Source of the DNA: Isurus oxyrinchus
Lineage: Eukaryota
Direction of reading: 5' to 3'
DNA length: 64,000 nt
Assembly (NCBI GenBank): GCA_026770705.1
Contig: JANJGN010000189.1
Location: forward strand, 248,001-312,000
Numbering within the stretch: the stretch's first letter is position 1; each line of letters starts with the position of its first letter. Positions 11,222-64,000 of the stretch are shown piece by piece. The translations under genes and the position numbers were made by a program. The notes beneath the pieces are model-generated. The model saw nothing but the letters and a program-made list of their open reading frames with translations. It did no database searches and was not told the origin of the DNA.

Positions 11222-11604
11222 CATAAGCCAAATGCTTCTTACAATCTATCGCAGCATGAAAAAGGTGCAGCATTCAGAAAGCTCATTCCAATCAGAGAAC
11301 AGAGTTTAGCGACGTCACATTTCTGTTCATTCCTATTCGATGAACAATTTCAAAAGGAAATTGGACGGAAATTGGAAATAAATTTGCAGGGATACGGGGA
11401 TAGAGCGGGGGATGGGACTGAGTGGATTGCTTTACAGAGAGACAGCATAGACTCAATGGGCCAAATGTCCTCCTCCATTGCTGGAATGACTCGATGATAC
11501 GGAGATGATTCTAACCAGGACACTGACCAGTTTCATTACAACTTAACACAACATCACACGTTATTTGTCCGCACTGACTGACCAGATTGTTGCTGTACAA
11601 AGCT

Positions 11605-11744
11605 TTAAACAGTCTGTCGATTTCCTTTCACTGTTTGTCTCTCCCAGACACAGACGCCAGCTATAGTGATAACCACAGCCACAAGGAATATCACAGCTCG
11701 TATTCCCAGGATCAGGATCACGTGCAGAATCTCTCCTCCACTGT
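11605..11744 (-). CDS. Gene C terminal TM exon: (D)SGGEILHVILILGIRAVIFLVAVVITIAGVCVWERQTVKGNRQTV*
   Basis: Acceptor ttctttctgtgtgttctctAG, phase 1. Hydrophobic helix with Arg (CGA, 11698-11700) and a 12-aa Tyr-free tail. The ORF track shows the wrong frame. Confidence 0.88.
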
Positions 11745-33700: not shown

Positions 33701-33949
33701 TCAGTTTTTCTGGAACCTGATCTGTGCGTATTCCGTGTCCTCGCTCCTGTGCACAGTCCTGTCACCGCCGGGCAGCTTTGAAAAGTTGATGTTGGCGTAG
33801 AGAAGCTCGTCGGGTTTGTCAGGGTTCCCATGTCCAACATCGCCTCCTACTGGACCTTCAGAGAGATCCCGGGGAGCTGGGGTCTCCCCCTCACTAGTTG
33901 TGTCTCTGGTTGTGTTCCGGGGCTCAGTAATCAGCACGTTCTGTTTACC
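33701..33949 (-). CDS. Gene B terminal exon, distal copy: ...DELLYANINF...DTEYAQIRFQKN* (ITIM + ITSM-like)
   Basis: Acceptor tttctctgtAG, phase 0, 249 nt; LxYxxI and TxYxxI motifs. Confidence 0.88.
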   Translation of the reverse strand, partial: GKQNVLITEPRNTTRDTTSEGETPAPRDLSEGPVGGDVGHGNPDKPDELLYANINFSKLPGGDRTVHRSEDTEYAQIRFQKN

Positions 33950-36900: not shown

Positions 36901-39900
36901 ACCACTGGACACCCTCAAAACTTGGGGATTGGCGTAGAGAAACTCTTCAGGTTTGCCGGGGTTCCCAAGTCCAGCATCGCCTCCCACTGCACCTTCAGAG
37001 GGAACCCGGGGAGCTGGGGTCTCCCCCTCGCTAGTTGTGTCTCTGGTTGTGTTCCAGGGCTCAGTAATCAGCACGTTCTGTTTACCCTACAGAGAAATGG
37101 AAACAGGAGACATCCTCACATTATTTACTGGCACTGATAGGGTTAAATTATTTTGCAGCTTCGTTAATGTCAGTCGTGTTTCAGTGGGTTTAACTCTCTC
37201 TCCCATGTCTTATGAAAGAAACCACCTATGGCAGTGCAGTGCTCCCTCAGGACTGACCCTCCAACAGTGCAGCACATCCTCAATAGTGACCCTCTGTCAG
37301 TCTCGCACTCCCTCAGTACTGACCCTCTGTCAGTCTCGCACTCCCTCAGTACTGACCCTCTGTCAGTCTCGCACTCCCTCAGTACTGACCCTCCGACAGC
37401 GCAGCAAAAACCTCAGTACTGACCCTCTGACAGTGCAGCGCTCCCTCAGTACTGACCCTCCGATGGTGCAGCGCTCCCTCAGTACTGACCCTCCGACAGT
37501 GCCGCGCTTCCTCAGTACTGACCCTCCGACAGTGCCGCGCTTCCTCAGTACTGACCCTCCGACGGTGCAACTCTCCCTCAGTACTGACCCTCCGACTGTG
37601 CAGCACTCCCTCAGTACTGACCCGCTGTCAGTCTCACACTCCCTCGGTAATGGCTCTGGTGAGTGACGGCTTGGATTCTTCACTCAAGTTTCTGGTGTGA
37701 AGCTCATTAACATGAACCTTGTAATCAGAGAGAGGATGAGAGAGAGAGAAAGAGAGAGAAAGAAAGGGAGGTTGGGATAGAGAGAGAGACTGGAATTTGA
37801 GAGGTGAAAATGCCTGGAATCTGCTTAAAGACTATGGGTTGTCTTAGAGGAGATTAGTTTGAGAATTTGTTAAAAAGTTATGATAATACTAGTTTGTAGC
37901 CATGTGCATATGTTTAACTTGTGTAAATTAATATATGTCTCATTTAGTTTGATATAAACCCATCTCGAGAACTGGTGGTCTTATTCCTGAATTTAGAGAT
38001 GCATCTCAAACATTCCACTGGGAAATATAGGTTATGACAGTTGTTTAAAGTTTCCCTCTGGGATTTTAAACAACAGCCTTTACCAGTTGCTGTGTCATAA
38101 CAGAGAGACAGCATGATACTGAACCATTGCTGATTCCACAGGTACAAATCAGTGGGTAACTGGGCTGGGAATCTGGGACATGTGTTGTCTACACACTGAC
38201 ATTGAAGCTTTGGAGTGAGTGTAAACAGCTCCTGTACCTGGTGCTTCACAGAGAGTGGACTGGGGGTCAATGCAATGTCACTGGTCCCTGAAACTCTCTC
38301 CTCCATCGCTGTCTTTCTCCTGCAATAACACAATATCACACTGTGGTTATCATATAGCAGAGAGTCAGTGCAGCACAGACACAGAGCCCACTGTAACCTT
38401 ACACCAACGACTGGACTGTCTCTTTAAATCAGTTCTGCACAAAGCACAGAATTAAGAAGCTTGACACTATCCATGACAAAGCAGCCCGATTGATCGACAC
38501 CCCATCCACCACATTAAACATTCACTCCCTCCACCATGAACACACAGTGGCAGCAGTGTGTGTACCATCTACAAAATGCACTGCAGCAACTCAGCAAGGC
38601 TCCTTCAACAGCACCTTCCAAACCCACGACCTCTACCATCTAGAAGGACAAGGGCAGCAGACACATGGGAACACCACCACCTGGAAGTTCCCCTCCAAGT
38701 CACTCACCATCCTGACTTGGAAATATATCATCGTTCCTTCACTGTCGCTGGGTCAAACTCCTGGAACTCCCTCTCTAACAGCACTGTGGGTGTACCTACA
38801 CCACATGGACTGCAGCGGGTCAAGAAGGCATCTCACTACCTCATTCTCAAGGGGCAATTAGGGAATGGGCAATTAGTATTGGCCACGCCAGTGACAGTCA
38901 CATTCGATGAAAGAATTTAAAATCTCACAGCTCAGGAGGAAGCCACTCAGCCCATCGTGCCTGTGCTGGCCCTTTGTAAAAACTGTCCAATTAATCGTAA
39001 ACAAATGTTTATATTAAAATCAAGTTAAATCTTCAGACTTACTTTCTCACACAGATGAAGATGAAGATTCCAGCCAGGAAAACACTCAACATGATCCCAG
39101 TCGTGAACAATCCTACTGTCCATTTACTGGAGTCTCTACCTGTAAAAACAGCCATTAATTACTGCACTACAGGTTTACAATGATGCTCCGATGTATCTCG
39201 AGAAGCGATACACTCACTCAGTGTTTAAATACTCATTCTCGGGCAATGCTGACATTTATTGTCCATCCCTAGTTTCCCCTTGAGAAGGTGGTGGGGGGTC
39301 TTCCTCCTGAACCACTGGTTTGTCCCAAATTGGGAGACCAGTTCAGAGGGCAGGTAAGAGTTAACCATGTTGGTGTTTGAGACTGGAGTCACATATACAC
39401 CCAGACCTGTTAAAATGGACAGGTTTCCCTCACTAAATGTGTAATTATATCTTTAATTTCTATATATATGTATCAACTAACATCACTAAAATAATCATTT
39501 ATCACCTCATCTTCACACTGTTGTTTGTGGGATCTTGCTCTGCACAAATCAGCTGTTGCGTTTCTCAACGTAATCTATGTAACATTTATATATAATATTT
39601 ATCAATGTAATCTATGTAACATTTATATATAATATTTATCAATGTAATCTATGTAACATTTATATATAATATTTATCAATGTAATCTATGAAATGTTTAT
39701 ATATAATATTTTATCGTTTGGGAGGAGAACCTGAGTATTGCTGAGAAAGGACATTTTGTCAAAGCTTTCTGTCTTGCACCCAATGAAGCAGCTTATCTGG
39801 GGGAGAGGGTTCCAGATTTCCACTCCCCTTTGTGTGAAGAAGTGCTTCCTGACATCACCCCCTGAACGGCCTGGCTCCAATTTGACCAAGTGTTGCCATT

Positions 39901-42900
39901 GTCACATGAGGCCAGACGATTCAAAGCTTGGTCAAAGGGGTCAGTTGTAAAGAGCATCTTAGAGGAGGTAGAGAGAGAGGTGGAGAGGTTGAGGGAGGGA
40001 ATTCTCGAGTTTAGGGATCAATCCAGCTGAGTGGAGATCGATCCTGAGCGAGTCTTTCACCTTTGACCCACAGATACATCTTGAACATGGCTTCCCCGTG
40101 TGGGTTTTGAACCGAGCAGGATGCAATCACTCCCCCCTCATCCTGGGGTCTCATCAGGGTGAGGGAACCAGTCACCAGATGCCCATCTCTGACCTGCCAC
40201 GACACAAAACCTCCGTGTGTTTGGTTACCACTGATGTTGGCACTGGGCAGGTGCCAGGTGAGGTCTCCGGGTGGGTTGGAGTTGGCCACACAGATGCAGG
40301 TGACCCCCTCTGACCTCCGAGTGCACTCTGACTGCTGGGAAATCTCCGGCTTATCTGAGGAGGGAAGGACAACAATGAGACAACTTCATAGCAAAGTTAG
40401 AGCGTAAGATAGAATCTTCACACTGAAACACTCATTCCTGCCTTTGTTACCTCCGTACTCGACTATCCCAACACTCTCCTGCCCGACCTCTCATCTTCCA
40501 CTCTCCGGAAACATCAGCTCATCCCAAACTCTGCTGTCCCCATGTCCTAACTCACACCGAGTCCCGTTCAGACATCACTCCCTGTTGGTCACTGAGCTAC
40601 ACTGGCTCCCGGTCCGACAATGCCACAATTTTAAAATTATCATCGTTTCAAATCCCTCCTTACTCCCTCCCTATCTCTGTAACCTCCTCAAGCCCCTACA
40701 ACCCTCCCTATCTCTGTAACCTCCTCCAGACCCTACAACCCTCCCTATCTCTGTAACCTCCTCCAGACCCCACAACCCTCCCTATCTCTGTTACCTCCTC
40801 CAGCATCTACAACCCTCCCTATCTCTGTTACCTCCTCCAGCCCCTATAACCCTCCCTATCTCTGTTACCTCCTCCAGCCATCACAACCCTCCCTATCTCT
40901 GTAACCTCCTCCAGACCCCACAACCCTCCCTATCTCTGTAACCTCCTCCAGCATCTACATCCCTCCGAGGTCTCTGCGTTCCTCCAATTCCGGCCTCTTG
41001 ACCATCCCCCGATTCCTATCGCTCCACCATTGGCAGCCGTGCCTTCAGCTGCCTGGGCCCCGAGCTCTGGAATTCCCACCGTAAACCTCTCCATTTCTAT
41101 CTCTCTCCTCATTTCAGACACTCCTTAAAATCCGGCCTCTTTCTCTGAGCTTTCAGTCCCTGTTCTAATATCTCCTTATGTATCTCGGAGAGGCGCAGGG
41201 TGAAAAAAGCAGGGAGGTGATGCTAGTTATGCTAATCCACAGCAAGGAAGCTGCCCTCAGACAGAAAGTGTTTGAGTTTTAAGCAGAGACAGGGGGAGTA
41301 AAATGCTTACATTGTACGTTCAGGTGGGTGATGTTGGAGGTGCTGTTACCCACTGGGTTCCTCGCTGTGCAGTAGAAACCTGCATCATTCTCCCGTGTTA
41401 CAGGAGTGAAGGAGAGAGTGCGGCTACTTGTGTTTAACTGGGTGCTGGTGTTCCCCTCGATCCTGAACCAGGTGTAATGAGATATCGGTGGGACACTTTC
41501 ACTGGAGCAGGTTAATGTGATATTGCTTCCCTCTCTTATCCCACCTGAGGATCTGCTGATGGACACCATCGTCTCCTGTGGGGGATCTGGAACAAAGACA
41601 GAGAACAATCAGCAGGTAATCCCCACACCCCACAGCTCTCCGAAATCTCTGCGCTCCTCCAATTCCGACCCCTTGCACATTCTCCCATTCCCATCTCTCC
41701 ACCATTGGCGGCCGTGCCTTCAGCTGCCTGGACCCTAACCTCTGGAATTCCCTCCATCATTTCTCACCTCCTTCGGACAAAATCTGACCCCGAGTCACAT
41801 TAGGAGATATTAGGAGAGGTGAGCAAAAGCTCGCTGAAAGCAGGAGGTTTTAACGGTGTGTCTTAATGGTTTTAAGGAGCATCTTAATGGTTGAGAAAGA
41901 GTTGGAGATTGTGTATCTCCCGCGCATCCCCCCTTGCAAATTCCTCTCCCTCCCAGAGCAATGTAAGGGTCCCTCCTGTCTTCACTTTTCACCCCACCAG
42001 CCTCCTCATTCAAAGGATCATTCTCCGCCATTTCCGCCAACTTCAGCATGATGCCACCACCAAACACATCTTCCCTTCACCACATCCGCCCCCCCCTCAC
42101 CCCCCCCCCACGTTGGCATTCCATAGGGATCATTCCCTCCAGGACACCCTGGTCCACTCCTCCATCACCCCTAGCATCTCAACCCTCTCCGATGACATCT
42201 TCCCATGCATTTGCAGAAGGTGCAACACCTGCCACTTTACTTCCTCTCCCCTCACTGTCCAATGACCCAAACACTCCTTCCAGGTGAAGCAGCGCTTCAT
42301 GCAGACTTCCTTCAATATAATCTACTGCATTCACTGCTCCCAGTGTGGTCTCCTCTACATTGGAGACACCAAACACAGACTGGGTGATCGCTCTGATGAA
42401 CACCTTCGGTCTGTCCACAAGCATGACCCAGACCTCCCTGTCGCTTGCCATTTTAACACCCCACCCTGCTCTCATGCCCACATGTCCGTCCTTGGCCTGC
42501 TGCATTGTTCCAGTGAAGCCCAACACAAACTGGAGGAACAGCACCTCATCTTCCGACCTGGCACTTTACAGCCTTCCGGTCTGAATATTGAGTTCAACAA
42601 TTTCAGATCATGAACTCTCTCCTCGATCTTCACTGCTTTTTGAACCCTTTTTTTATGTATTCATTTTAATTGTTTTATTTGTTGACTGTTTTCCACTTAT
42701 TTTTATTATTATTATTTGAAATTCATTTCCATTTTTATTGATTGTTTTATCCACAGATTTTAGTCTATTTTCGATCTTTATTCCCTCCACCGTCCCCTCC
42801 CCCTGCCACACCCCCACGAGGGCCATCTGTCTCTTTCCAGAGTGCTTACCCTGGTCCGCCCATTATCACACTCTGCTTAATGTCACCATTAGCACCTCCT

Positions 42901-45900
42901 TTATCCAATACCACCACTGTTAACAACCCTTTGACCTTTTGTTTATGACATCTTCCACAATCTCTCCATTGCCTCCACCTATCGCTGGTTTTCTATCCAG
43001 CTCCACCTGTCCCATCGCCCCGCCTTAGACAGGATATATTTCACCACATGTCTACTTCCCTTTAGCTCTGAAGAAGAGTCATACAGACTCCAAACGCTAA
43101 CCCTGTCTTTCTCTCCACAGATGCTGCCAGATGGTCAGAATCAGCTGGATGGACAGAAAGACCAATGAGTGGCTTAGATCAAGAGGAGACGTTCAGCAAT
43201 TAAAAGGGTTGTTCAGGACAGTTAGAGAGAGAAAGTTCATCAAGTATGGAGATTGGAAACGAAGATCTGACAGCCTTGTCCTCACAACCATTGAAGGAGA
43301 AACTGAGAGCAAAAACAGAAAGGGAGAGGAAAAATTGGGTGTGTGGATAACGTGGACTGAGCGAGGATTGAAGAAAACTGGATTAAAAACAACACGATCC
43401 CAATGGCTCCATGGAGACCACGGAGACAACAAACAAACAAATGTATCTCCACACTCACATTCCACAGTGATGGTTATGAACCCCTCCACTGCTCCATGTT
43501 CATTCTCTGCCACACACTGATAGTCTCCAGTGTCCCTGGATGTAACGTGAGGAATCACCAACCACAGCTCATTGTTGGAACTTGTTCTGTTCATTGGGAC
43601 ATTAAGATGTCGCCACGTCAGGTTAGAAGCTGGGAAGCTCTCGACAGAGCAGATTATCACTGCAGAATTCCCCTCAATTATATTGATCGATGAAGCGTTA
43701 ATCATATCAAGAGAAGTAATTGATGAGTTCCGTGGTGCATCTAAATACAAATAAAGGTTTCATTGTGAGCAAACACAGTGCACAGCAAGACTCCAGGTAT
43801 CATCTCTCTCCATCTGGTGTCTATGTGCATGTCAAGGCTTCTTTCCCCATTATGATTTTCTATGTCACTATTTGTAACAGACACTGCCAGTGTGTTCCTT
43901 TTTGCATATTCATGGGAAGTGGATGTATCTATCTAGACCAGCATTTATTACCCATCCCTAATTGCCCTTGAGGAGGTGGTGGTGAGTTTTTCACCCCCAC
44001 AGAATTCCCAGCCTCTGACCGGCTCCTGTAGCCACAGTATTTATGGCCGGTCCAGTTAGTTGTTTGGTCAACATCCCCCAGGATGTGGATCGTGGGGGAT
44101 TCAGCGATGTGAAAGTGATTGAACATCAAGGGGAGATGGTTAGATTCTCTCTTGTTGGAGATGATCACAGCCTGGTACTTGTGTGGTGTGAACATTACTT
44201 GTCATTTCTCAGCCCAAGCTGAGTGTTGCTCAGCTCTTGCTGCGTGTGGATATGTAAACTGTCACGCTGTAATTACAGCCTTCCACCAGAGGAGACACTG
44301 TTGGGCTAGAAGAAAAGAAAGTGTCTTTCACATGATCAGGATGTTCACGGAGATTTCACCATGGAGGAATTGCTTTGGAATAGTGGGGTATTGGGTGATA
44401 AACCTACAATTCACTGTTCAGGAGGTTGCTCCATCCAATTCAGTGTCTTGATGATCTGGAGTTTACCTTCCTTCAACACAGAATCAGAGCTGCTACCGAG
44501 ACTCGAGTGCAGCACTGAGACANNNNNNNNNNNNNNNNNNNNNNNNNNNNNNNNNNNNNNNNNNNNNNNNNNNNNNNNNNNNNNNNNNNNNNNNNNNNNN
44601 NNNNNNNNNNNNNNNNNNNNNNNNNNNNNNNNNNNNNNNNNNNNNNNNNNNNNNNNNNNNNNNNNNNNNNNNNNNNNNNNNNNNNNNNNNNNNNNNNNNN
44701 NNNNNNNNNNNNTAACTCACGTTCCACAGTGATGGTTATGAACCCCTCCACTGCTCCATGTTCATTCTCTGCCACACACAGATAGTCTCCAGTGTCCCTG
44801 AATGTAACGTGAGGAATCCCCAACCACAGCTCATTGTTGGAACTTGTTCTGTTCATTGGGACATTAAGATGTTGCCACGTCAGGTTAGAAGCTGGGAAGC
44901 TCTCGACAGAGCAGATTATCACTGCAGAATTCCCCTCAATTATATTGATCGATGAAGCGTTAATCATATCAAGAGAAGTAAATGAGAGATTCTGTGGAGC
45001 ATCTAAGAACAAATCAAGTGTTTAATGTGAGCAAGCACTGTGCACAGCAAGACTCCATGCATCATGTCTCTGTATCTGATGCCTGTGTGCATTTCTAGGC
45101 ACCTTCCCTCAAGATAAGTTCCTATGTCACATTTACAATGGGCACTGCCTATGTAAACTGTCACACTGCAGGAGCATTCTCCCACCAGAGACCCTGCCCA
45201 TCCAGATTTAAAGAAACTCCCTTTCACATCCTCAGGATGTCCCCAAGGGCTTGACAGGCAATGAATTATATTTAATCGATGGAGCACTGAGGGGTAAATC
45301 TACAATTCTCTGTTAAGGATTTTGCTCATCCAATTCAGGGTCTTGTTGATCTGGAGTTTACCTTCCTTCAGCACAGAATCGGAGCTGACACCGAGACTCC
45401 AGTGCAGCACTGANNNNNNNNNNNNNNNNNNNNNNNNNNNNNNNNNNNNNNNNNNNNNNNNNNNNNNNNNNNNNNNNNNNNNNNNNNNNNNNNNNNNNNN
45501 NNNNNNNNNNNNNNNNNNNNNNNNNNNNNNNNNNNNNNNNNNNNNNNNNNNNNNNNNNNNNNNNNNNNNNNNNNNNNNNNNNNNNNNNNNNNNNNNNNNN
45601 NNNNNNNNNNNNNNNNNNNNNNNNNNNNNNNNNNNNNNNNNNNNNNNNNNNNNNNNNNNNNNNNNNNNNNNNNNNNNNNNNNNNNNNNNTGTGTGTTGTC
45701 TGTGTGCGCGTGTGCATGTGNNNNNNNNNNNNNNNNNNNNNNNNNNNNNNNNNNNNNNNNNNNNNNNNNNNNNNNNNNNNNNNNNNNNNNNNNNNNNNNN
45801 NNNNNNNNNNNNNNNNNNNNNNNNNNNNNNNNNNNNNNNNNNNNNNNNNNNNNNNNNNNNNNNNNNNNNNNNNNNNNNNNNNNNNNNNNNNNNNNNNNCA

Positions 45901-48900
45901 TGTGTGTGTGTGTCTGTTGGTGCGTGTGTGGTCTGTGTAACCTGTAAACCTAACCCTTCCACACTGATGGTCACGAACACCCCCCACTGCCAACAAATTT
46001 ATCTCAGTAAGGAACATGGCACTGCCAACCTCGTCAATACCATCTTCTAAACAGGGGATTGGGTAGGAGTCTGGTTTTATTGCTGCATTAACCTTTCTGT
46101 AATCTATGCAGAATCTGGTTGGAAATGAAATACCTGCTCCTTTTTACCTCCCTCCCTACGATGGTATCATTTTAACATATTGATGTGTCACTGCCGATTC
46201 TTTATTCTACAATCTGGGGTGTCTATCAAATAATTTACTTGACCAACCCTCCTAATTACCTTGTGGGGACCACTGAACTGCGCTTTCAGAGGCTCCCCCT
46301 GCCAAGGCAATGATACTAACACGTCATCCCCCTGGTTGTGATGTTCGGGTCACAGCTTGCCTGTCTGCCCCATTCCTTCATCTCTGTTTGAGAAACTATA
46401 AGATGTTCTTGTGCCACTTTGGAGGCTCCCATGAGCCGTTCCTGAAACATGGACACATCATCTGAAATAGAGGATTCATCCCTCTGTCCGGAATATCTTT
46501 CTTTGATGTATTTCAGACAGCCTCTTATCTCGTGTCCATAAGTTATTCCAAAAAGACTAAAACCTGCCGATTCAGTTGGTGAATCTCGTGTGGGAAATGC
46601 AAGAAAATCCAGTCCTTTGTCCCAGTCATGGGGAGTTCATGACAATAGCTTCAATCATTGTTTTGAGGGTTTGTTGGTCCCTCTCTAAAGATCCCCGTGT
46701 CTATGGATGATATGCTGTGGACTTTAACTGTTTTATACCCAAATTACTCATTATGTTCGGAAAATTTTAAGACATAGAGATGGAACCTTGATCTGACTGG
46801 ATCTCCAGCGGTAATCCATAATGGATAAAAAATTGGGTTAACTTCCCTATTACTACTTTAGCTGTAATTGTTCCTAAAGGGATGGCCTCTGGAAATCGAG
46901 TTGTCATATCCATCATAGTGAGGCCATACTGGAGTCCGGCTTTCATTTTCGATAATGGTCTAATACAGTCCACTAATGCTCGTATCCAATGGTAACGGAC
47001 AATTAGCTCACTGGAGGAGGGGAATCCACAAATATCCCCATCCTCAATGAAGGGGGAGCCCAGCACATCAGGGCAAAAGATAAGACTGAAGCATTTGCTA
47101 CAACAATTATCCATTTCTGTCTGGCGTAAAAATAAGTCAGGAAATGGTGCTCAACCAGGGCTTACAAAAGAAATTAGGGATAGTATTAGATCCAGAGAGG
47201 AGACAGAAAATTGCCAGGGGAAGCAGCAATGCTGAGGATTGGGAGCAGTTTAGAATTCAGCAAAAGTGGACAAAAAGATTGATCAAGAAGGGGAAAATGG
47301 AACATGGGAGTAAACTTGCAGGGAACGTAAAAACCGACTGTAAAAGCTTCTATAAATATGTGAAGAGAGAAAGATTAGCAGTGACCGATGTAGGTTCCTT
47401 GCAGTCAGAAATGGGGGAAATTCTAATGAGAAACAAAGAAATGGCAGAAGAACTGAACATATATTTTGGTTCTGTCTTCACAAAAGAGGACACAAATAAT
47501 TTCCCAGGAATGTTAGGGAACCAAGTGTCTAGTGAGAGGGAGGAATTGAAGATAATCAGGATTAGTTTTAAAAAATGGAGCTGGAGAAATTAATGGGTTA
47601 AAGGTTGAACAGTCCCCAGGGCCTGAAAATCTACATCCCAGAGACTAACGGAAGTGACCCTGGAAATATTGGAAGCACTGGTGGTCATCCTCCAAAATTC
47701 TATAGGCTCTGGAGCAGTTCCTATAGATTGGAGGGTGGCAATTGTAACTCCACTATTTAAAATAGAAGGGAGAGAAAAAAACTGGGAATTACAGATCAGT
47801 TAGTCTAACATGGGGAAAACGCTAGAGCCTATTATATAAGGTGTGCTAATGGAACGCTTGGAAAGCTTTAATGGGATTCGACAAAATCAGCATGGGTTAA
47901 TGAAAGGAAAATCATGGTTAACTAATCTATTGGAGATTTTGAAGATGTAACGAGTAGAATAGATAAGGGATAACCAGTGGATGTGGTGTATTTAGATTTC
48001 AAGAAGGCTTTTGATAAGGTCCTACATGAGGCTAGTGCGCAACATTAAAGCCCATGGGATTGCGGGTAATTTACTGGCATGGATTGAGAATTGGTCGATA
48101 GACAGGAAACAGAGGGTCAGAATAAATTAGTCTTTATCTGAGTGGCAGGCGGTGACTAGTGGTATACCACAGGGATCCGTGCTTGGGACCTAACTATTCA
48201 CGATATATATAAATGACTTGGGTGAGGGAGCCAAGTGCAATATTTCCAGGTTTTCTGATGACACAACGCTGGGTAAGGGTGTGAGCTGTGAGGAGGATGC
48301 AAAGAGGCTTCAAGGCGATTTAGACAAGTTGTGTGTGTGGGCAAACACATGGCAGATGATGTGGATGAATGTGACATTGTAGGCTTTGGTGTGAAAAACA
48401 GAAAGGCAGAGTATTATTTAAATGGTGATATAATGGGAAATGTGGATGTATAAAGGGATCTGGGTGTCCTTGTGCACTAGCCAATGAAAGTAAACAGGCA
48501 GGTGCAGCAAGTAATTCGGAAGGCAAATGGTATGTTGTCCTTCATTGCAAGAGGATTTGTGTTCAGGAGTAGGGATGTCTCACTGCAGTTATACAAGGTC
48601 TTGGTGAGACTGCACATGGGGTACTACGTGCCGTTTTGGTCTCCCTCCCTAAAAAAGGATAGACTTGCCGTCGAGAGAGTGCAGAGAAGGTTCTCTAGGC
48701 TGATACCAGGGGCGGCAGGACTGTCGTATGAGGAGAATTGCTACGACTGGGTCTGTATTCACTAGAGTTTAGAAGAATGAGAGGAGACCTGAATAAACGT
48801 AAGAAATTCTAACAGAGATAGACAGACTGGATGGAGGGAGGATGCATCCCCTGGTTGGGGAGTCTAAAACCAAGGGCGACAATCTCAGGATACAGGGCAG

Positions 48901-51900
48901 GCCATTTTGGACGGAGATAGGGAAACATTTCTTCACTCAGAGGGTGGTCAATCTGTGGAATTCTCCATCACAGAGGCTGTGGAGGCCGGGTCACTGAGTG
49001 TATTCAAGAAAGAAACTGATAAATATTTTGATATTAGGGGCATCAAAGGGTACGGAGAGAAAGCAGGAATAAGGCTTTGAGATAGAGGGTCAGCCTTGAT
49101 CATATTGAATGGCGGAGAAGGCTTGAAGGGCTGAATGTCCTAATCCTGCTCCTAGTTTCTATGTACCTAGGTATCTATAGAACTATCTCTCTCCGTGTTC
49201 TATTCTCATGTGACCTTGAGTAACTGATGATAAATACTATCTATTTACATTGTTAATATTAAACTTTTATACTACATCACCCCCAAAATCTTTGACATCA
49301 ATGAAGACAATATTTATATTATCCTATATTGTCTTTTAAGTTCAACCTTGGCCCCCTCTGCCCTATCAGGTAGGCATAAACAATCCCAAGGCTCAATACA
49401 GGAAGAGCTCTCCCTGGTCAATATCACTAATAAAAAAGGACCTGTTTTGTCTTCAACCCAGTGATGTTTGTGGGATCTTGCTCTGCACATTGTAACCTAT
49501 TACAGCTAATATAGAATCAAGGGTTTCAGTACTTACCTTGTACAGTTAATACGAGGGTCCGCTCCGATGAAACAGATGGATATCTCACTCTGCAGCTGAG
49601 AGTGTGTCCGTGGTGTTTGAGTGATGGGATCAGGGTCAGAACAGAAGTATAGGTCAGAGTGACACCATGCTGAGTTACAGTGTTTGAGACTGATCCAGGT
49701 ACGTCAGTGGGAGTGTCCCAGGTTAAGACAGGTGCTGCTGTTCCATTGCACGTTGTGTTGAAGGTGCAGCTTACATCCACACGCTTCCCTGCAATAATTT
49801 CAGCAGGGAATATCATGGGTTTATCTGTGAAATCTAACAGACAGAGAATGGATCCTTTTAGAGAAATATAACGTGAAGCATCAGTTCAAATAGAAATCAC
49901 AGTCCCACAAGAAAAAGCACTTTTACAAGGATGATATCAGAACTGAGAGATTACAACGATCAGGAGAGACTTTCCTATTTTCAGACTTAGTGGAGTTTCA
50001 GTCACTCAGATGAATTCACTTCCACTTTGAGACAATTGAATTGACAATCCCGGGTGAGGGTGGGGGATCAGCTCACAGTTCCTGACACACTGGCTTGTTA
50101 CTTTCTCCGAAATCTGCCAGATTTAAATTCTATCCTGTTCCCAGCAGGAGAGAATCCATTTGAACCAATCACTGAACCGGCATTTAAAGCAGATGATCAG
50201 GTTATTGATCACATTGCTGTTTCTGGGAGCTTCCTGTGCACAAATTGGCTGCTGTGTTTCCCATATTACAACAAGGGCTACATTTCAAGAATTATTTCAA
50301 TGGTTGTGAATCCATTTGCGACGTCCAGAGGTGGTGAAAGGCGCTATAGAAATGCAAATCTTTCTTTTGTTGATATGTAAGAATTTTAAACAGGATTAGG
50401 GAGATTGATGTAAGTGGATAACCTGATAACATTGATGGACACAGTCAATACATTTAATCACTGATATTAAAGTGAGTATTAGAGGTTGTTTTAGGACTGA
50501 ACTGGAAGCTATCACCAGGTTATTGAGAACCAGACAGTGTGTTATAATTAGCTGTGTTTTGTGTTAATATGTAAACGTCACAGTTTGTGTTATTTCCCAT
50601 TGAGTGTTGAATGTGAATTGTTGAGTAATTATAACACAGCACTTACCAGAAACGTGAAGCTGGGTTACAGGGTAATAGTTATGGCCCGGACCATTGTCAA
50701 ATTCTATTCTGAAAATATAAGTTCCTGCATCTTCCCGTCTGATGTTGTTTATAATCAGGGAACAGTCGCCATCTTTCAGGTCTCCAGACAGCCGGGTCCG
50801 ATGGTGGAACCGTGGTAACTCGTGACTGTGATCCTTGGAGTGAAAGGCAATGGGAGCCCAGGGAATCTGTTTCTCATTATTAAACCAGACTCCACCTCGC
50901 GGTTGGTTTTCCGGACACAATGGATAACTGTAATGACATGGAATCTGTACACACGAACCTTCCTGTGCTGTCACCTCTCGTGGACTGTCACCTTTCCACT
51001 CTTGTGAGGGTTTATCTGGGGAGAGAAATCTCAATATTTAACTCTGGATGGTTTGTGGATCCACTAGACTCAAAATTTACAGATGAGGCTGAATTGGGGG
51101 GATGGTCAATACTGAGGAGAATGGCAACAAATTATTTTGGCAGGAAGAATAGAAAAACAGGATATTATTTAAATGGAGACAGGCTGCAGAATGCAGTACA
51201 GAGGGATCTGGGTGTCCTTGTACATGAATCACAGAAAGTCAGCATTCAGGAACACCACGGAATGAGGAAGGCAAGTGGAATGTTGGCCTTTATTGCAAAG
51301 GGATGGGGTATAAAAGGAGGGAAGTCTTGCAGCAGCTGCACAGGGCGTTGGTGAGATTGTATCAGGAGCAGTGTGTACAGTTCTGGTCTCCTTACTTAGG
51401 GAGGGATAGAGTTGCTTTGGAGGCAGTTCAGAGGAGGTTCACTGGGCTGATTCCTGGGATTAAAGGGTTTGTCCTGTGAGGAAATGTTGAGCAGGTTGGG
51501 CCTGTATCCATTGGAGTTTAGAAGAATGAGGGGTGACCTTATTGAAACATATCCGATTCCGAGGGGGCTTGACAGGGTGGATGCTGGGAGGATGTTTCCC
51601 CCTCGTGGGGGAATCTAGAACCAGGGAGCACAGTTTCGGAATGAGGGCTCTCCCATTTAAGACTGAGATGAGGAGGAATTTCCTCTCTCAGAGGGGCGCT
51701 AGCCTGTGGAATTCTCTTCCCCAGAGAGCAGTGGAGGCTGGGCCATTGAATAGACTCAAGGCTGAGTGAGGCAGGTTTTTGATCGACAAGGGAGTCAAGG
51801 GTTTGGGGAACAGGCAGGAAAATGGAGTTAAGGCCACAACCAGATCAGTGAGGGCTGGCTCGAGGGGCCGAATGGCCTGCTCCTGTCCCTATTTCTTATG

Positions 51901-54900
51901 TTCCTACATTCTTACCTTCTTAAAATATTAAAGCTGCAGAATAAACATGCAAGTGACTGACCCGCTCGACCCACCTTCCATCTGGGGCTGGAGGAGGTTA
52001 CACAGATAGGGAGGTTTGTGGGGGCTGGAGGAGGTAACAGAGATAGGGAGGGCTGTAGATACTGGAGGACATTACGCAGATAGGGAGGGTGGTAGGACCT
52101 GGAGGAGGTTGCAGAGATAGGGAGGGCTATAGGGATTTGAGGAGTTTATGGAGATGGGGAACGTGTAGGGACTGGAGGAGGCTGCAAGGGCAGAGAGGGT
52201 TTTAGGGGCAGGAGGAGTTTACAGGGATAGGAAGAGTTGTAGGGGCTGGACGGATTGCAGAGGTAGGGAGGGTTGGAAAGGCTGGTGGAGGTTTCAGAGG
52301 TAGGGAAGGCTGCAGGGACTGGAGGAGTTTACAGAGATGGAGGAGTTTTTGGGGCAGGATGGGGTTACAGAGATAGGGAGGGTTGTAGGGGCAGGACGAG
52401 GTTACATAGATATGGAGTGTGGCTGGGGCTGAGGGAGGCTACAGAGATAGGGAGGGTTATAATGGCTGGAGGAGTTACAGAGATGAAGGAAACTCTTAGG
52501 GACTGGAGGAGGTTACAGAGATAGGGAGGGTTGTAGTGGGCTGGAGGAGGTTACAGAAATATGAAGGGTTGTAAGAGATGGACCAGCTTACAGAGATAGG
52601 GAGAGGTATTCGGTCTGGAGGAGTTTGCAGAGATAGTGGAGGTTGTTAGGACTGGAGGAGGCTACAAATATCGCGAGGGTTATCGGGGCTTGAGGAGGTT
52701 AAAGAGATAGGGAGGGGTGTTGGGTCCGGAGGAGTTTGCAGTGATAGGAATGGTTTTCGGGATTGGAAGAGAGTACTGAGATAGGAGGGTTGTAGGGACT
52801 GGAGGAGTCTCCTGAGATAGGGAGGGTTGTAGGGACTGGAGGAGGCTCCTGAGATAGGGAGGGTTGTAGGGACTGGAGGAGGCTCCTGAGATAGAGAGGG
52901 TTGTAGGGACTGGAGGAGGCTCCTGCGATAGGGAATGTTGCCGTGGATGAAGATAAAGGAGGAGATTACTGTAATAGGGAGGAAAAATATTCAAAAATTT
53001 GGACATTGAGACTTTGCTTGACCAGGAGCCAGTCTCGGTCATCGAGCAGAGCGGGTGATAAGGGAACGGGACTTGGTGTGAGTAAGGACGTGGTCAGCAG
53101 TTTTGGATGGCCTCAAGTTTATGGAGTGTAGAGCATGTGTTGGAACAGTCGAGTCTGGAGGTAATGAAGGCGTGGATGAGGGTTTCAGCAGCAGATGAGC
53201 TGAGACAGGGTGAAGTCGTACGACGTTATGGAGGTGGAAATAGACAGTGTTAGTGAGGGCGCAGATATGAGGCCGGAAGCTCATCTCAGGATCAAATGGG
53301 ACAACAAAGCTGTGAACAGATTGGCTTCAATCTCAGAGAGCTGCCAGGGAGAGGAATGGAGTTGGTAGCGAGGGAACAGAGTTTGGATCGAGGAATGAAG
53401 ACAATGGCTTCAGTCTTTCCAATATTTAATTGGAGGGAATTTCTGCCCATCCAGTACTGGATGTCGGATAAGCAGCCTGATAATTTAGCAGCAGTGGAGG
53501 AGTCGAGAGAGGTGGTGGTGAGGTAGAGCTGGGGATCCTCAGTGGACAGGTGAAAACTAATACTGTTCAGATGATGCTGCAAAGCCATTGCAAGTGATTC
53601 TCTGGCTACGATGAGATGGATAAGAATGGAGCCAGGGGAGAGCAGTCCCACCCAGCTGGACGACAGTGGAGAGGGGTTGGAGGAGGATGGTGTGGTCGAG
53701 CGTGTCAAAGGCTGCAGACAGATCGAGAAGGACGAGGAGGGAAAGTTGACCTTTGTCACAGTCACACAGGATGCCATTTGTGACCTTGATAAGAGCTGTT
53801 TCAGCACAGTGGCTGGGGTGGGAACCTGATTGGAGGGATTCAAACATGGAGTTCCGGGAAAGATGGAACCGGATTCGGGAGATGGAAACACGTTCAAGGA
53901 CTTTGGAGGGGAAAGAGAGGCTGGAGATGGGACGGGGGTTTACACGGACAGTGTGAGGGGTGGAAGGTGTAGTGGGGAGGAGACACTTCACTCAGGGGGG
54001 AGGTGTCATCACCCCTCAGCTCGGTTTACGTTACAGCTATGATGTGGATTCAATCACACACAATAAGCTCATGGATCTGGGAGCAGAAATAGACAAATCA
54101 TTAAAAATAGTGACGCTGGTTAACACGGCCAAAAAACAAGCAAATCAAACACTATTATTTCCCATTGAGTGTTGGATGTGAATTGGTGAGTAATTATAAC
54201 ACAGCACTTACCAGAAACGTGAAGCTGGGTTTCAGGGGAAACGTTATGTCTCGGACCATTGCCAAATTTTATCGTGAAAAAATAAGATCCTGCATCTTCC
54301 CGTCTGATGTTGTTTATAATCAGGGAACAGTCGCCATCTTTCAGGTCTCCAGACAGCCGGGTCCGATGGTGGAACTGTGATAACTCGCGACTGTGACCCT
54401 TGGAGTGAAAGGCTATAGACCATTTAGACCATTTGTTCTGTATGTATCTTCTCATTTTCCAGATTCCGACCTGTGGTTTCTTTACCAAATCTGATGGATA
54501 ACAGTAATGACATGGAATCTGTACACACGAACCTTCCTGCGCTGTCACCTCTCGTGGAGTGTCACCTTTCCACTCTTGTGACAATCCAACTGGGGAGAGA
54601 AATATCAATATTTAACTCTGGATGTTTTGTTGATCCACTAGACTCAATATCCACCCCCTCCATCACTGGGGCACAGTGGCTGCAGTGTGGAGCATCTACA
54701 GGACACACAATGAACTCCACAAGGTATCACACCAGATGGAAGAGAATCCTGGACACAAAAGCGGAAAAGTTCATTCTACATTGGTTCATGGTCCTCAGGA
54801 CCCTGTTTGTGCACAAGCCTGCTCTCCAACAGAACTGAAGTTGGGGACAATGCATTTGGAATTCCACTGTCCGGGGCATTGGGTTAACTTGCTGATTTTG

Positions 54901-57900: not shown

Positions 57901-59913
57901 GGTGTGGCCTTCTGCAGGCACCAAGGAAATGCCCAGCTTTCCACCAAGCCATCAAGGCTTGTGGCAGAAAGGGCCATTGACAGCGGCAGGGCACTAGAGC
58001 AAAGGCTGATGCAGCTACAAAGAGCCGTGCGCTGATCCAAACAATCCCTGCACAACGGGGAAACTTCAAGCAATAAGGATGACCATCCGCTATCCCATCA
58101 GGAACATATACATGTGGTGACTGACAAACCAGGAATTGGCGATGATGTACACGACGAGACTAGGAGCGGTGATCGATATTCCACCTCTCACACATATCCT
58201 GACGTGGCTTGCCAATAAATTGTGGATTGTGGTCTTTATTGATCTCTCTGGGCACATCAAATAAACTGAAAATGTTCCCATAGGGGTGGGATTTTCTGGC
58301 CCCACCCACTTCCAAGATTGTCTGGTCCGGCTGAAAGCCAATGGATTTATGTCTGTCCCAGTCTCAGAAACTATCCCATAAACACAGTTCATGACATAAC
58401 ATTGAAATATGCAGAAAGATTCAACAATATTGGCAGTTTCATGGGAGCTGCAACATTACACCTGCAGGAGAATGCAAGTCTGTCAGACTCCTTGCATTAA
58501 AATTAATACAATCCAACTTTGCCACGCTATCTTGAGCCTTAAATGGCCAATAATTTCTATGCCTTCCAGGTTCATTTGCTCTCTTCTAATTTTGGCTGTG
58601 CATCTCTCTCTGTTGAACTTCCTCTCGGGATCCCATCCCCTGCTATATTACTTTAAAGCCTTCTCAATTGCATCAAGGGTGTAATGTCAATTGAAACCAG
58701 GGACAACATCAAAGAATGACAATCCCACAGATCAATGTGAGCAATTAAAGAAACCTCCAGACAATTTTGCCACCACAAGATCTCGACATAACAGCAGATT
58801 ACCTCTACGCTTTAGAGACTCAAATATTCAACAGATCTATACACTTATGTAATTGTCAAGAAATATGAAAATGATACCAGGAACCTCTTGTTCCCTGTCC
58901 TTCTCAAAGATCCATCCCTGCAGCAGGAGCCTGAAGAGTTACTGAAGAGTGGGTCTTAATTTATCAGATTGTAGAATGATCCGGAATAGAAGGATGCCAT
59001 TTGGCCCATCGAGCCTGTGCTGGGCCTTTGAAAGATCTGTCCAATTAGTCCCACTCTAACCTCTGCTCTCTCCTCCACAGCCCTGCAAAATGTCCCCTTC
59101 AAGTATTTATCTAGTTCCCCTTCTGAAAGTTCCTGTTGAATCTGCTGCCACCAGCCTTTCAAGCAGTGAGTCAATGGTCTCTCTCTGAGCTGCAAAGTGC
59201 TAATGTTCTGAGAACTTTAAACACTGCAGCAGATCAGAGACAATCATGATAACTCAGAATATTTGACAGTTTTACACACAGACAGCTTTACCTTTCTTCT
59301 CTCTTTCAGTTATCTTGCTCCCTTATTGAAGTATCTAGCATGGTGAGAATGGACAGTAAGTGTGACACTGAACAGCCTGTCTATTCTAGGAGCTGCTGTG
59401 TTGTCTTCATGGGAAATTCTGACTAAAATCAGCAATAGACACAAAATTTCAGGGCATTGTTATCCGAGTCCCAGCATCAGGATAGACTTCATCCCCCAGT
59501 TGGTATCCCTGATTCTCTATTCAGCCGATCGCTCCCCTGTCACTGGATGAACTACACTGCCTCCCAGTCCAGCAATGACTCAAATTTCAAATTCTCATCA
59601 TCGATTTCTTACCCCACCATCCCCCCTCTACACTCCCAATCCCTGTAACCTCCTCCAACCCTAAAACCCTCTGAGATCTCTGCTCTCCTCCAATTCTGCT
59701 GTCAGACAGGGAGTCAGTGTATATCAGTGAGCACAGGGGTGATGGGTGAATGGGACTTGGTGTCAGTTTGTACACTGGATCACTGCTGAATCGGTTCCCA
59801 ATCACACTCAATAAGAATGATCTTTTACAAAGACTATTAGCCATAAACCTGTCCGAGCTGATGATGTTATTACCTTGGAGAAGTGACAGGAGGAAGTAGG
59901 ATTTCCCGATCAT
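33701..59913 (-). CDS. Gene B: putative inhibitory Siglec-like receptor (MAG-type scaffold), leader-V-V-C-C-C-C-C-TM-cytoplasmic tail, 881 aa with either tail cassette
   Basis: Eleven coding exons per isoform with consistent GT-AG sites and phases (1,1,1,1,1,1,1,1,2,0), 2646 nt open; Tyr motifs in the last exon. Confidence 0.82.
35611..35692 (-). CDS. Gene B juxtamembrane cytoplasmic exon, distal copy (K)RKTAMEERVSGTSDIALNPSPLSVKHQ
   Basis: Acceptor ttattgcAG, donor CAG|GTACAG; 82 nt, phase 2/0. Confidence 0.75.
35820..36290 (+). mobile_element. LINE 3' fragment, duplicated at ~38450-38920
   Basis: LDTIQDKAARLI...SFTVAG..SWNSL. Confidence 0.75.
36838..37086 (-). CDS. Gene B terminal exon, proximal copy: ...EEFLYANPQV...ETEYAQIRFENN* (proximal ITIM degenerate, ITSM-like kept)
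   Basis: Same acceptor, phase and length as 33701-33949; open frame; minus-strand AATAAA at 36308-36313. Confidence 0.82.
   Translation of the reverse strand, partial: GKQNVLITEPWNTTRDTTSEGETPAPRVPSEGAVGGDAGLGNPGKPEEFLYANPQVLRVSSGDGSVHREEETEYAQIRFENN
38238..38319 (-). CDS. Gene B juxtamembrane cytoplasmic exon, proximal copy (K)RKTAMEERVSGTSDIALTPSPLSVKHQ
   Basis: 82 nt, phase 2/0; matches the phase-2 donor of the TM exon. Confidence 0.82.
39043..39139 (-). CDS. Gene B TM exon (G)RDSSKWTVGLFTTGIMLSVFLAGIFIFICVR(K)
   Basis: Acceptor gtttttacAG, donor AA|GTAAGT; uncharged hydrophobic helix; not in the ORF track. Confidence 0.88.
39570..39716. repeat. AT-rich 37-bp tandem repeat, ~4 copies
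   Basis: gtaatctatgtaacatttatatataatatttatcaat starting at 39570, 39607, 39644, 39681. Confidence 0.92.
40061..40354 (-). CDS. Gene B membrane-proximal Ig exon (MAG domain-5 type)
   Basis: YKPEISQQSECTRRSEGVTCICVANSNPPGDLTW...ASCSVQNPHG; C-x8-CxC pattern; 294 nt, phase 1/1. Confidence 0.88.
41311..41586 (-). CDS. Gene B C2-set Ig exon
   Basis: YPPQET...EGSNITLTCSSESVPPISHYTWF...DAGFYCTARNPVG; 276 nt, phase 1/1. Confidence 0.92.
41915..43127 (+). mobile_element. Penelope-like element fragment (GIY-YIG endonuclease)
   Basis: NIIYCIHCSQCGLLYIGDTKHRLGDR...VACHFN...KLEEQHLIFR; related terminal pieces at ~3150-3300 and ~10225-10322. Confidence 0.88.
43128..43440 (+). mobile_element. RTE-type LINE 3' fragment
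   Basis: RISWMDRKTNEW...RERK..KYG....TTIEG and an (AAAC)n tail. Confidence 0.6.
43459..43740 (-). CDS. Gene B C2-set Ig exon, copy 2
   Basis: APRNSSITSLD...IEGNSAVIICSVESFPASNLTW...DTGDYQCVAENEHG; 282 nt, phase 1/1. Confidence 0.92.
44721..45002 (-). CDS. Gene B C2-set Ig exon, copy 1
   Basis: DAPQNLSFTSLD...DTGDYLCVAENEHG; 282 nt, phase 1/1; near-identical to copy 2. Confidence 0.9.
45940..46985 (-). mobile_element. Degraded Gypsy integrase fragment
   Basis: LTMMDMTTRFPEAIPLGTITAKVV...FFIHYGLPLEIQSDQGS (rve core). Confidence 0.8.
47110..49165 (+). mobile_element. CR1 LINE ORF2 3' portion, degraded
   Basis: KSFYKYVK, YFGSVFTKED, LQLYKVLVRLH, ERVQRRFSRLIPG and CR1 3' tail; many stops. Confidence 0.9.
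49537..49833 (-). CDS. Gene B Ig C-type exon (Siglec domain-2 type)
   Basis: 297 nt, phase 1/1; about 7 nt and 3 aa differences from 13334-13630 by manual count. Confidence 0.92.
50647..51015 (-). CDS. Gene B V-set exon V2
   Basis: DKPSQEW...DAGTYIFRIE; 369 nt, phase 1/1; essential Arg present. Confidence 0.93.
54212..54589 (-). CDS. Gene B V-set exon V1 (essential Arg replaced by Thr)
   Basis: VGLSQEW...DAGSYFFTIKF; 378 nt, phase 1/1, open frame. Confidence 0.92.
59874..59913 (-). CDS. Gene B leader exon MIGKSYFLLSLLQ
   Basis: Paralog of 23704-23743; donor CAAG|GTAAT. Confidence 0.85.
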
Positions 59914-62339: not shown

Positions 62340-62950
62340 TTTCATAAATCGAGGGATTGAGTACAAACACAGGGAGGTTATGCTGAACATTTATAAAGCT
62401 CTGGTTAGGTCACAACTAGAGTATTGTGTCCAGTTCTGGTCTCCTCACTTTGGGAAGGAAGTGAGGGTCCTTGAGAGGGTGGGGAGGAGATTGAGCAGAA
62501 TGGGTCCAGGGATGAGGGATTTTAGCTACAAGGTTGGGTTGGAGAAGCTGGGGTTGTTCTCCTTGGAGCAAAGGAGATTGAGGGGGGACCTGATCGAGGT
62601 GTACAAGATGATGATGGGTTTAGATACGGTAGACAAAGAGAAGCTGTTGCCATTAGCTGATGGGACAAGGACTGGGGGACACAGATTGAAGGTTTTGGGC
62701 AGAGGGGGATGTGAGGAGGAACTTTTTTAAACAGCGAGTGGTAATGAGCTGGAACTCACTGCCTACGAGGATGGTGGAAGCGGAGACGATGAACAATTTC
62801 AAAAGGAAATTGGATGGACACTTGAGGGGAAATAAACTCACAGGGATACGGGGATAGAGAGGGGGAATGGGACTGAGTGGATTGCTCTACAGAGAGACAG
62901 CATGGACTCAATGGGCTGAATGGGCTCCCACTGTGCTGGAATGCCTCTCT
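62340..62950 (+). mobile_element. CR1 LINE 3' fragment
   Basis: YKALVRSQLEYCVQFWSPH...LFSLEQRRLRGDLIEVYK. Confidence 0.9.
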
Positions 62951-63059
62951 GATACGAAGGTGATTTTAACCAGGACACTGACCAGTTTCATTGCAACTTA
63001 ACCCAACATCACACATTATTTGTCCGCACTGACTGACCAGATTGTTGCTGTACAAAGCT

Positions 63060-63199
63060 TCAAACAGTCTGTCGACTTCCTTTCACTGTTTGTCTCTCCC
63101 AGACACAGACTCCAGTGATAGTGATAACCACAGCCACAAGGAATATCACAGCTCGTATTCCCAGGATCAGGATCACGTGCAGAATCTCTCCTCCACTGT
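63060..63199 (-). CDS. Gene A terminal TM exon: (D)SGGEILHVILILGIRAVIFLVAVVITITGVCVWERQTVKGSRQTV*; remainder presumably beyond the window
   Basis: Paralog of 11605-11744 with the same acceptor, Arg codon at 63153-63155 and stop position (TGA vs TAA). Confidence 0.85.
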
Positions 63200-64000
63200 C
63201 TAGAGAACACACAGAAAGAAATCATCACTGACTCTCCACTTTCAATCTCTCACTCTGGCTGAACAATCAAGCTTCATAACACTGCAACATTTGCTGTAAT
63301 ATTGACCCATCCACTGGGATTCAATGTGGAATGAATGTTTTCATTGTAAACACTCCAAGAGTGGACAATCGGAACTTTCCCCTTAGCGTGGAACATTGGT
63401 GAGAATGGATCATTGTGCTGTTGGACTCCCTGTCCAATGTTTCTCTCCATCGCTGTGTACAGGATTGTGCTGTAGAAAATTCTGGAAATGTTTAGTGCAG
63501 GGTGGAAATCCATCTCGGATGCGTGTGCGAATCGGGCAGGATCGAGATGGACTCCCCCACGGACTTACACACCCCGCTAAATAAACAGTTCCAATCTTTA
63601 CCCAGAGAGAGGGGAGAATGTGGAACTCACTCCCACTGGGAATGGTTGAGGTGAACAGTATCGATGTATTTAAGGGGCAGGAGGGTCGGTAACCAGAGGG
63701 GCACAGATTGACGAACCGGAGGGGGAGATGAGGAGAATTTGTTTTGACAGAGCGAGTTGTTGTGATCTGGAAGGTGCTGCCTGAAAGGGTGGTGGAAGCA
63801 GATTCAATAGGAACTTTCAAAAGGGGAATTGGATAAACACTTGAAGGAGGAAGATGGGGGCAAAGTGGAGTGGTGGTTAGTGGATCTGATTGGATAGAAC
63901 ATTGAAAGACCTGGCACAGGCACAATGGGCTGAATGGCCTCCTCCTGTGCTGTATCATTCTCCGCTTCCATGATCTCTCCCCCAGTCAGTAACCACTCCA

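Follow-up and report, generated by a model that had tools for sequence, protein, structure and literature searches.

The window analysed here, i.e. the whole 64,000-nucleotide stretch of contig JANJGN010000189.1 from Isurus oxyrinchus, contains a gene (hereafter gene B) that appears to encode an intact shark Siglec-like receptor of the inhibitory type with two tandem V-set domains, the first of which (V1) has Thr in the place of the carboxylate-binding Arg. Our preferred explanation, to which we assign a probability of about 45%, is that V1 lost canonical sialoside binding through changes directed at the pocket, which disarmed or retargeted it, and that the second domain (V2) still senses sialylated self. 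Loss of this Arg from Siglecs is a known, recurrent event; the variation here lies in an Arg-less V1 placed above an Arg-bearing V2. In the course of events that we propose, the Arg would have become Thr by a single AGG-to-ACG step, the conserved Tyr of the G strand would have been replaced by Val, and a weak N-glycosylation sequon would have arisen on the strand beside the pocket. V1 would have kept its fold and lost canonical sialoside binding, and V2 would have retained such binding (both by analogy with the mammalian Siglecs); the changed outer surface could have served either the escape from a pathogen that is coated with sialic acid or binds V1, or the recognition of a new ligand. That selection was at work, and what its cause was (pathogen escape, ligand switch or drift), we only infer; pathogen-driven escape is plausible. 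The features of gene B that bear directly on this reading are (positions in the window):

54212 to 54589, minus strand: V1 exon, a Siglec-type V-set domain with the A-strand Trp kept at 54570-54572
54273 to 54275, minus strand: codon of the lost Arg, ACG, for Thr119 in precursor numbering (residue 105 of the V1 exon), which corresponds to the sialic-acid-binding Arg of the F strand
54249 to 54269, minus strand: F-G hairpin with Lys107, Gly109 and Arg113 (exon numbering), the two basic residues flanking the lost Arg
54234 to 54245, minus strand: N-V-S-P of the G strand (N129 of the precursor), with the conserved Tyr changed to Val and the next Tyr to Ser, a new N-glycosylation sequon, and then Pro
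54501 to 54503, minus strand: extra Cys, C43 of the precursor, found in 1 of 164 homologues
50647 to 51015, minus strand: V2 exon, with the Arg (AGA, 50708-50710) and the pocket aromatics kept

The four V exons of the window, two in gene B and two in a neighbouring member of the same family (gene A), all lie on the minus strand and have AG/GT ends. As the original prediction had it, FTIKF with the ACG codon occurs only in B-V1 (54212-54589), and B-V2, A-V1 and A-V2 have FRIEF with AGA (at 50708-50710, 18092-18094 and 14420-14422, respectively); the accompanying difference in the G strand, NVSPET in B-V1 versus NYYPVT in the paralogues, was borne out as well, and the reading frame of B-V1 is open. 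The column is also that of the canonical Siglec Arg, as had been assumed: A-V1 aligns it to chain residue R97 of sialoadhesin, and B-V1 can be aligned without gaps to CD33 and Siglec-5 over their YFFR motif. At this position, where Arg is regarded as essential for the N-terminal V domain of a Siglec, we found Thr in B-V1 and Arg in B-V2, A-V1 and A-V2.

Two parts of the original prediction had to be narrowed. The loss was said to involve two substitutions in one codon, which is true with respect to the AGA paralogues of the window, but not with respect to contigs from the SRA runs X1 and X7 (see below) that encode Arg by AGG; because such AGG versions exist, a single non-synonymous change from AGG to ACG suffices. 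The AGG intermediate thereby rules out the two-hit codon as a sign of selection; double differences are also frequent in these exons, 12 of the 125 codons compared between B-V1 and A-V1 differing at two or more bases. Likewise, the statement that Arg was lost only in V1 holds for the four V exons of the window, to which we restrict it because the transmembrane exon of a third family gene is found at 63060-63199, i.e. the array continues past the window.

According to the structural prediction, B-V1 is folded as a Siglec V-set domain. Its framework is intact. The Pfam families V-set and Ig_CD22 were detected above the cut-off in all four V exons, C2-set_2 was detected in the first C2-set exon (C1), and the top PDB matches by sequence and by fold are Siglecs: CD33 and Siglec-5 rank first in the sequence comparison, MAG and sialoadhesin in the structural one. 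The AlphaFold2 model of B-V1, made from a 50-row alignment, has a mean predicted local distance difference test score (pLDDT) of 89.5, places the Thr in the strand 100-108, and is most similar to MAG (Z 18.0, root-mean-square deviation 1.7 Å over 117 residues) and sialoadhesin (Z 17.8). The cysteine pattern typical of Siglecs is present, with C21, C26 and C87 (exon numbering) conserved and an F strand that reads YFF, without Cys, from which we infer the intra-sheet disulfide between strands B and E and the inter-domain one. The roles of the individual residues of the sialic-acid site are known from solved Siglec structures; B-V1 keeps W6 and H114 of the pocket, the second aromatic of the G strand, Y116, is lost in B-V1 only, and B-V2 keeps the pocket Trp, Arg, His and Tyr. 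For most mammalian Siglecs it is described that the guanidinium group of the Arg pairs with the carboxylate of the sialic acid and that mutation of this Arg abolishes binding (PMC10122656). Thr cannot pair with the carboxylate, and therefore V1 most likely lacks canonical sialoside binding, while the complete pocket of V2 suggests that the receptor as a whole, unlike Siglec-XII, probably retains sialic-acid binding. The sequon at N129 may stay empty because it has Pro at +3, a residue reported to be strongly depleted at this position in used human glycosites (bioRxiv 10.64898/2026.09.03.749169). The extra residue C43 is probably unpaired; it probably lies on the surface and could form disulfide-linked dimers.

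The rarity of these changes was gauged in a survey of homologues, all of them shark and ray proteins, which covered 130 of 262 proteins (132 unnamed representatives were left out; one search gave 120 of 167 matches, and isoforms may repeat a gene) and yielded 188 V domains, or 172 distinct ones after 16 duplicates had been dropped. A search restricted to proteins of similar length contributed only 3 of the proteins. The automatic names of the shark homologues were given no weight as functional evidence. Domains from the basking shark (76-77%) and the white shark (75%) are closest to B-V1. The Arg column contains Arg in 158 domains, Lys in 12, Tyr in one and Ser in one, and Thr in none of the 172; among the ten V1-type domains of the basking and white sharks it contains nine Arg and one Lys. 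Tyr occupies the position of the second G-strand aromatic in 156 of 172 domains, Val being found there in B-V1 but in no homologue (0/172), and neither an N-x-S sequon at that column nor two non-conservative pocket changes in one domain were seen in any of them (0/172 each). B-V1 departs from the family at 3 of the 46 columns that are conserved at 85% or above, and two of these three are among the three pocket columns, a concentration with a hypergeometric P-value of 0.009 for pocket columns that were picked after seeing the data. Rare changes are absent from its D-E framework (exon residues 72-100). The column is also preserved in internal V domains (Arg in 46 of 54, Arg or Lys in 53 of 54), which suggests that they are functional lectin sites, and 34 of the 130 proteins have 2-7 tandem V domains, nearly all with Arg. 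A tree of V domains (40 rows, with 4 short and 5 duplicate ones dropped) groups B-V1 with the V1-type domains and singles out no orthologue or one-to-one partner; the identities in this family reach 77% for B-V1 (basking shark) and 93% for B-V2.

Two side observations concern the same alignment. An extra Cys in the B-C loop is present in 34 of 51 internal V domains versus 1 of 102 first V domains, and would let the inter-domain disulfide of Siglecs repeat along the chain of V domains. Lys at the Arg column is frequent in the carpet-shark homologues P0022, P0025, P0071, P0096, P0226 and P0234.

We mapped four of 24 SRA runs (X1, X5, X6 and X7; X1 was read about half) onto positions 54050-54750, bearing in mind that contigs lose rare variants and refraining from the use of summed contig depth as copy number. 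An assembly error, with AGA in the reads, had been named as one way in which the original prediction could fail; as deduced from the depth tables, X1 contigs also carry ACG, which makes a base error unlikely. The summed X1 (organism A) depth of 2,527 at 54274 is made up of 1,360 with the window base, 1,037 with Arg and 131 with ATG, and at least about 850 of the 2,527 must be ACN, even with unlisted variants at the 5% limit. The Arg depth of X1 comprises 1,009 AGG versus 28 AGA, a proportion in which the 90% likeness filter favours AGG; AGG accounts for 21 of the 121 depth in X7 (organism B), where S101 and K107 are retained in a remaining depth of 10. K107 and V116-S117 are conserved in two X1 pieces (depths 304 and 61) that depart from the window at 4-5 positions, G111R and R113S among them, and therefore the Thr/VS type occurs in more than one haplotype. 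The longer of the two covers the codon and very likely encodes Thr, as deduced from depth and end-distance arithmetic on the tables. X5 carries the C-C' segment of B-V1 (54440-54521) with one difference, and X6, which we guess to be RNA, showed no joint over these 701 bases of the window. The ATG contig of X1 represents either a further non-Arg state or a branch caused by error.

Several observations weigh against a pocket that was disarmed under selection. Three departures at conserved columns are an ordinary number for this family, and the seven differences of B-V1 in the F-G segment lie within the range of 0-8 seen in 66 close homologues. The single X1 contig with ATG (depth 131) encodes Met in place of the Arg, as might be expected where constraint has been lifted, and X5, X6 and X7 have only Arg contigs at the codon, which does not amount to absence of Thr, as rare variants are dropped. 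Genes A and B differ by 13.0% in the V1 exon, 7.1% in V2 and 2.4% in C1, and the introns around V1 by 1.8% in the 1.2 kb on the 3' side and by about 5% over the greater part of the 5' intron, but the 300 bp of the 5' intron that adjoin V1 differ by 10.3%. This extension of the V1 divergence peak into the 5' intron suggests a conversion tract from another paralogue and not point selection alone, and the pattern as a whole fits conversion tracts that end at V1 or replace it. The ratio of non-synonymous to synonymous substitution rates (dN/dS) between B-V1 and A-V1 is 1.24, not significantly above 1 (Fisher P = 0.35), so that a ratio above 1 for V1 is not supported; across all pairs of V1 and V2 it is close to 1, which relaxed constraint would fit equally well. 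A family-wide bias of Arg loss towards inhibitory receptors likewise found no support, with non-Arg states in 10 of 91 cases in the class with Tyr-motif tails versus 1 of 12 in the class with an Arg-bearing transmembrane segment (P = 0.62), in a test that is underpowered and uses rough classes (P0018 and P0024 were missed in the latter class, and P0086 entered the former through an extracellular match).

In a first alternative, V2 and the many paralogues would provide sialic-acid binding and would have made the V1 pocket dispensable, V1 being a spacer in which Thr, Val and the sequon are tolerated products of drift shuffled by conversion. Besides the dN/dS close to 1, such relaxation agrees with the hypervariability of the F-G segment across the family, with the several haplotypes of X1 and their possible Met variant, and with the presence of Lys in both V domains of the whale-shark protein P0022, the best full-length homologue; a similar relaxation is described for the converted exons of Siglec-11 and Siglec-16 (PMC5701461). 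We nevertheless regard it as rather unlikely: Arg or Lys is kept in 170 of the 172 domains, including 53 of the 54 internal ones, so that redundancy alone seldom frees the site, and the rare changes of B-V1 hit the pocket and not the framework.

A change of specificity with no loss of binding is a second alternative, in which V1 would bind sialic acid or another anionic ligand (candidates are a sulfated glycan, polysialic acid or a membrane lipid) through Lys107, Arg113 and a basic C-C' loop. The F-G hairpin carries the substitutions E107K and S113R next to T105, and in Siglec structures the side chains at these two positions lie on one face. B-V1 has 18 Lys and Arg versus 12 Asp and Glu, there are X1 variants with Arg at 111 in place of 113, and Siglec-6 is described to bind gangliosides without the canonical Arg (PMC10122656, PMC12953582). 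On the other hand, A-V1 is equally basic (17 versus 12), and Lys107 is older than the loss, as 10 of 172 homologues (by column counts) and one X7 contig combine it with Arg. We consider a shifted basic site to be distinctly unlikely.

An elaboration of the preferred explanation would divide the labour between the two domains: V1, having been disarmed by selection and covered with an N-glycan next to the position of the former Arg, would act as a shield against pathogens that mimic sialic acid, V2 would read sialylated self, and the Thr/NVS lineage would be maintained in multiple haplotypes. Taken in full this is improbable; if true, it would be a case of Siglec escape in a cartilaginous fish without cost to self-recognition.

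The remainder of gene B is as follows:

59874 to 59913, minus strand: signal-peptide exon, 13 of 13 residues identical to the leaders of shark homologues, phase 1
49537 to 49833, minus strand: first C2-set exon, with a C2-set_2 Pfam match
44721 to 45002, 43459 to 43740, 41311 to 41586 and 40061 to 40354, minus strand: four further Ig exons
39043 to 39139, minus strand: uncharged transmembrane exon
38238 to 38319 and 36838 to 37086, minus strand: proximal tail cassette, with FLYANP (no immunoreceptor tyrosine-based inhibitory motif, ITIM), TEYAQI (resembling the immunoreceptor tyrosine-based switch motif, ITSM) and a stop
35611 to 35692 and 33701 to 33949, minus strand: distal, duplicated tail cassette, with LLYANI (ITIM-like), TEYAQI and a stop
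44523 to 44712, 45414 to 45689 and 45721 to 45898, no strand: three N-gaps that separate the V/C1 block from what follows in gene B

Its 11 exons have AG/GT ends, agree in phase, and encode without internal stops a protein of 881 amino acids (leader, V1, V2, five further Ig exons, uncharged transmembrane segment, tail), whose best full-length match is the whale-shark model P0022 (68% over 875 amino acids). The uncharged transmembrane segment and the ITIM- and ITSM-like motifs of the tail would fit the inhibitory type that had been assigned to this receptor, with the qualification that LLYANI ends in Ile and thus falls outside the strict [ILVS]xYxx[LV] signature as given in PMC7226832. The link from V1 to the tail is based on scaffolding, exon phase and the architecture of homologues. 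The last alternative, an assembly artefact (a base error at ACG or, for the most part, a V1-V2-C1 block scaffolded across gaps to the tail of another paralogue), could be argued from the three N-gaps between C1 and the second C2 exon, the near-duplicate exons beside one of them, and the exact window haplotype, which occurs in no mapped piece and differs at 54287 from all X1, X5 and X6 contigs (X1 half read), but it has little chance of being right in view of the ACN depth of X1 given above (at least about 850 of 2,527), the consistent exon phases, the order V-V-five Ig-tail shared by homologues, and the absence from gene B of A-type sequence past C1, where the A/B similarity block ends (49505).

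Some minor features of gene B may be recorded here. It has two tail cassettes, each with its own stop, and the choice between them in splicing could tune signalling; doubled tails are also found in the white-shark models P0026 and P0039. The gap at 44523-44712 lies between a pair of near-duplicate C2 exons (43459-45002; about 90% identity when the flanks are counted in), which represent either a duplication or joined haplotypes. The intronic reading-frame remnants at 45361-47150 may derive from the reverse transcriptase and integrase of a long terminal repeat (LTR) retrotransposon.

The parallel with Siglec-XII, drawn in the original prediction, is real as regards the loss of the V1 Arg but probably does not extend to the receptor as a whole, as V2 of gene B keeps all pocket residues. 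Like gene B, Siglec-XII (SIGLEC12) is described to have two N-terminal V-set domains and an ITIM-type tail, with the Arg of V1 replaced (R122C) (PMC6288428, PMC7379906); B-V1 has also gained a Cys, at a site other than that of R122C. Unlike gene B, in which the B-V2 pocket is complete, Siglec-XII lacks the Arg in both V domains according to one paper (PMC10803920), and it is decaying, with common null alleles, whereas gene B is open and has Thr together with the G-strand changes. The shark tandem-V layout appears to be an expansion separate from Siglec-XII. Loss of the Arg is reported to be recurrent (R to C in Siglec-XII, R to W in SIGLEC17P, R to H or Y, polymorphic, in ape Siglec-5 and Siglec-14), and there is precedent for pathogen pressure on inhibitory Siglecs (PMC7379906, PMC6288428). 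As in the great-ape Siglec-5/Siglec-14 pair and SIGLEC17P, the same Arg is lost here within a cluster that contains receptors of both the inhibitory and the activating kind (PMC7379906). Unlike in the ape pair, where both members changed, the activating-type neighbour A keeps the Arg, with a V1 that is 73% identical. Ape Siglec-5 and Siglec-14 have a single V domain each. The Siglec-5/14 and Siglec-11/16 pairs resemble genes A and B in being adjacent, in sharing their 5' blocks, and in having signs of conversion and opposite signalling ends (PMC5701461, PMC6288428), but their ligand-binding exons are reported to be homogenised (PMC5701461), whereas V1 is the most diverged coding part between A and B. 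MAG (Siglec-4) and sialoadhesin (Siglec-1) are the best structural matches, and the A-strand Trp aligns to W2 of sialoadhesin; the shark genes differ from both in forming a fast-evolving tandem cluster. MAG and sialoadhesin are conserved, single-copy receptors with a single V domain. Fish genomes were said to lack inhibitory CD33-related Siglecs in a teleost study that does not mention sharks (PMC7226832), and the whale-shark genome paper names Siglecs once (PMC8455134). Literature searches for Siglecs of sharks or with tandem V domains, in which most subscription journals were not covered, returned no description of a shark Siglec-like family or of its Arg loss.

So far, loss of the Siglec Arg has mostly been treated as a matter of hominid evolution, in terms of the loss of N-glycolylneuraminic acid (Neu5Gc) or of mimicry by pathogens; the shark case would mean that the same site was struck independently at the base of the jawed vertebrates. 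Since the receptor also contains a nearly identical domain with Arg, it offers a built-in control for distinguishing between escape, ligand switch and decay. The lone substitution is by itself a modest result, and a larger gap may be the shark family as such, with its tandem clusters, its up to seven V domains, nearly all with Arg, and its ends of both the inhibitory and the activating type.

The other members of the cluster in the window are:

11605 to 23743, minus strand: gene A, with leader at 23704-23743, V1 at 18031-18417, V2 at 14359-14724 and C2 at 13334-13630
11605 to 11744, minus strand: exon of gene A for an Arg-bearing transmembrane segment and a short tail
63060 to 63199, minus strand: Arg-bearing transmembrane exon of a third family gene, upstream of gene B, with V exons outside the window

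Gene A is open and encodes 409 amino acids in the order leader-V-V-C2-transmembrane segment, the layout of the white-shark model P0018; the transmembrane Arg sits in the N-terminal third of the segment. The original prediction described it as an activating partner of gene B that keeps the Arg. Gene A does have Arg in both V domains, an Arg-bearing transmembrane segment and a short tail, but the partnership is not supported by the divergence of V1: genes A and B share a 7.5-kb block at 93% identity with opposite signalling ends, and their V2 domains differ at 14 of 119 residues, but gene A is doubtful as a partner because the V1 domains are 73% identical, less than the 77% between B-V1 and a basking-shark domain, with 33 of 125 residues different, and have not been homogenised. 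The third gene, directly upstream of gene B, could be its real counterpart. Within the intron of gene A, at 12860-13010, lies what is left of a C2 exon of the gene B kind, frameshifted and truncated at its 5' end; gene A is open if this remnant is skipped. The Arg-bearing transmembrane exon of the third gene with its flanks (62787-63660) is 94% identical to that of gene A (11338-12205).

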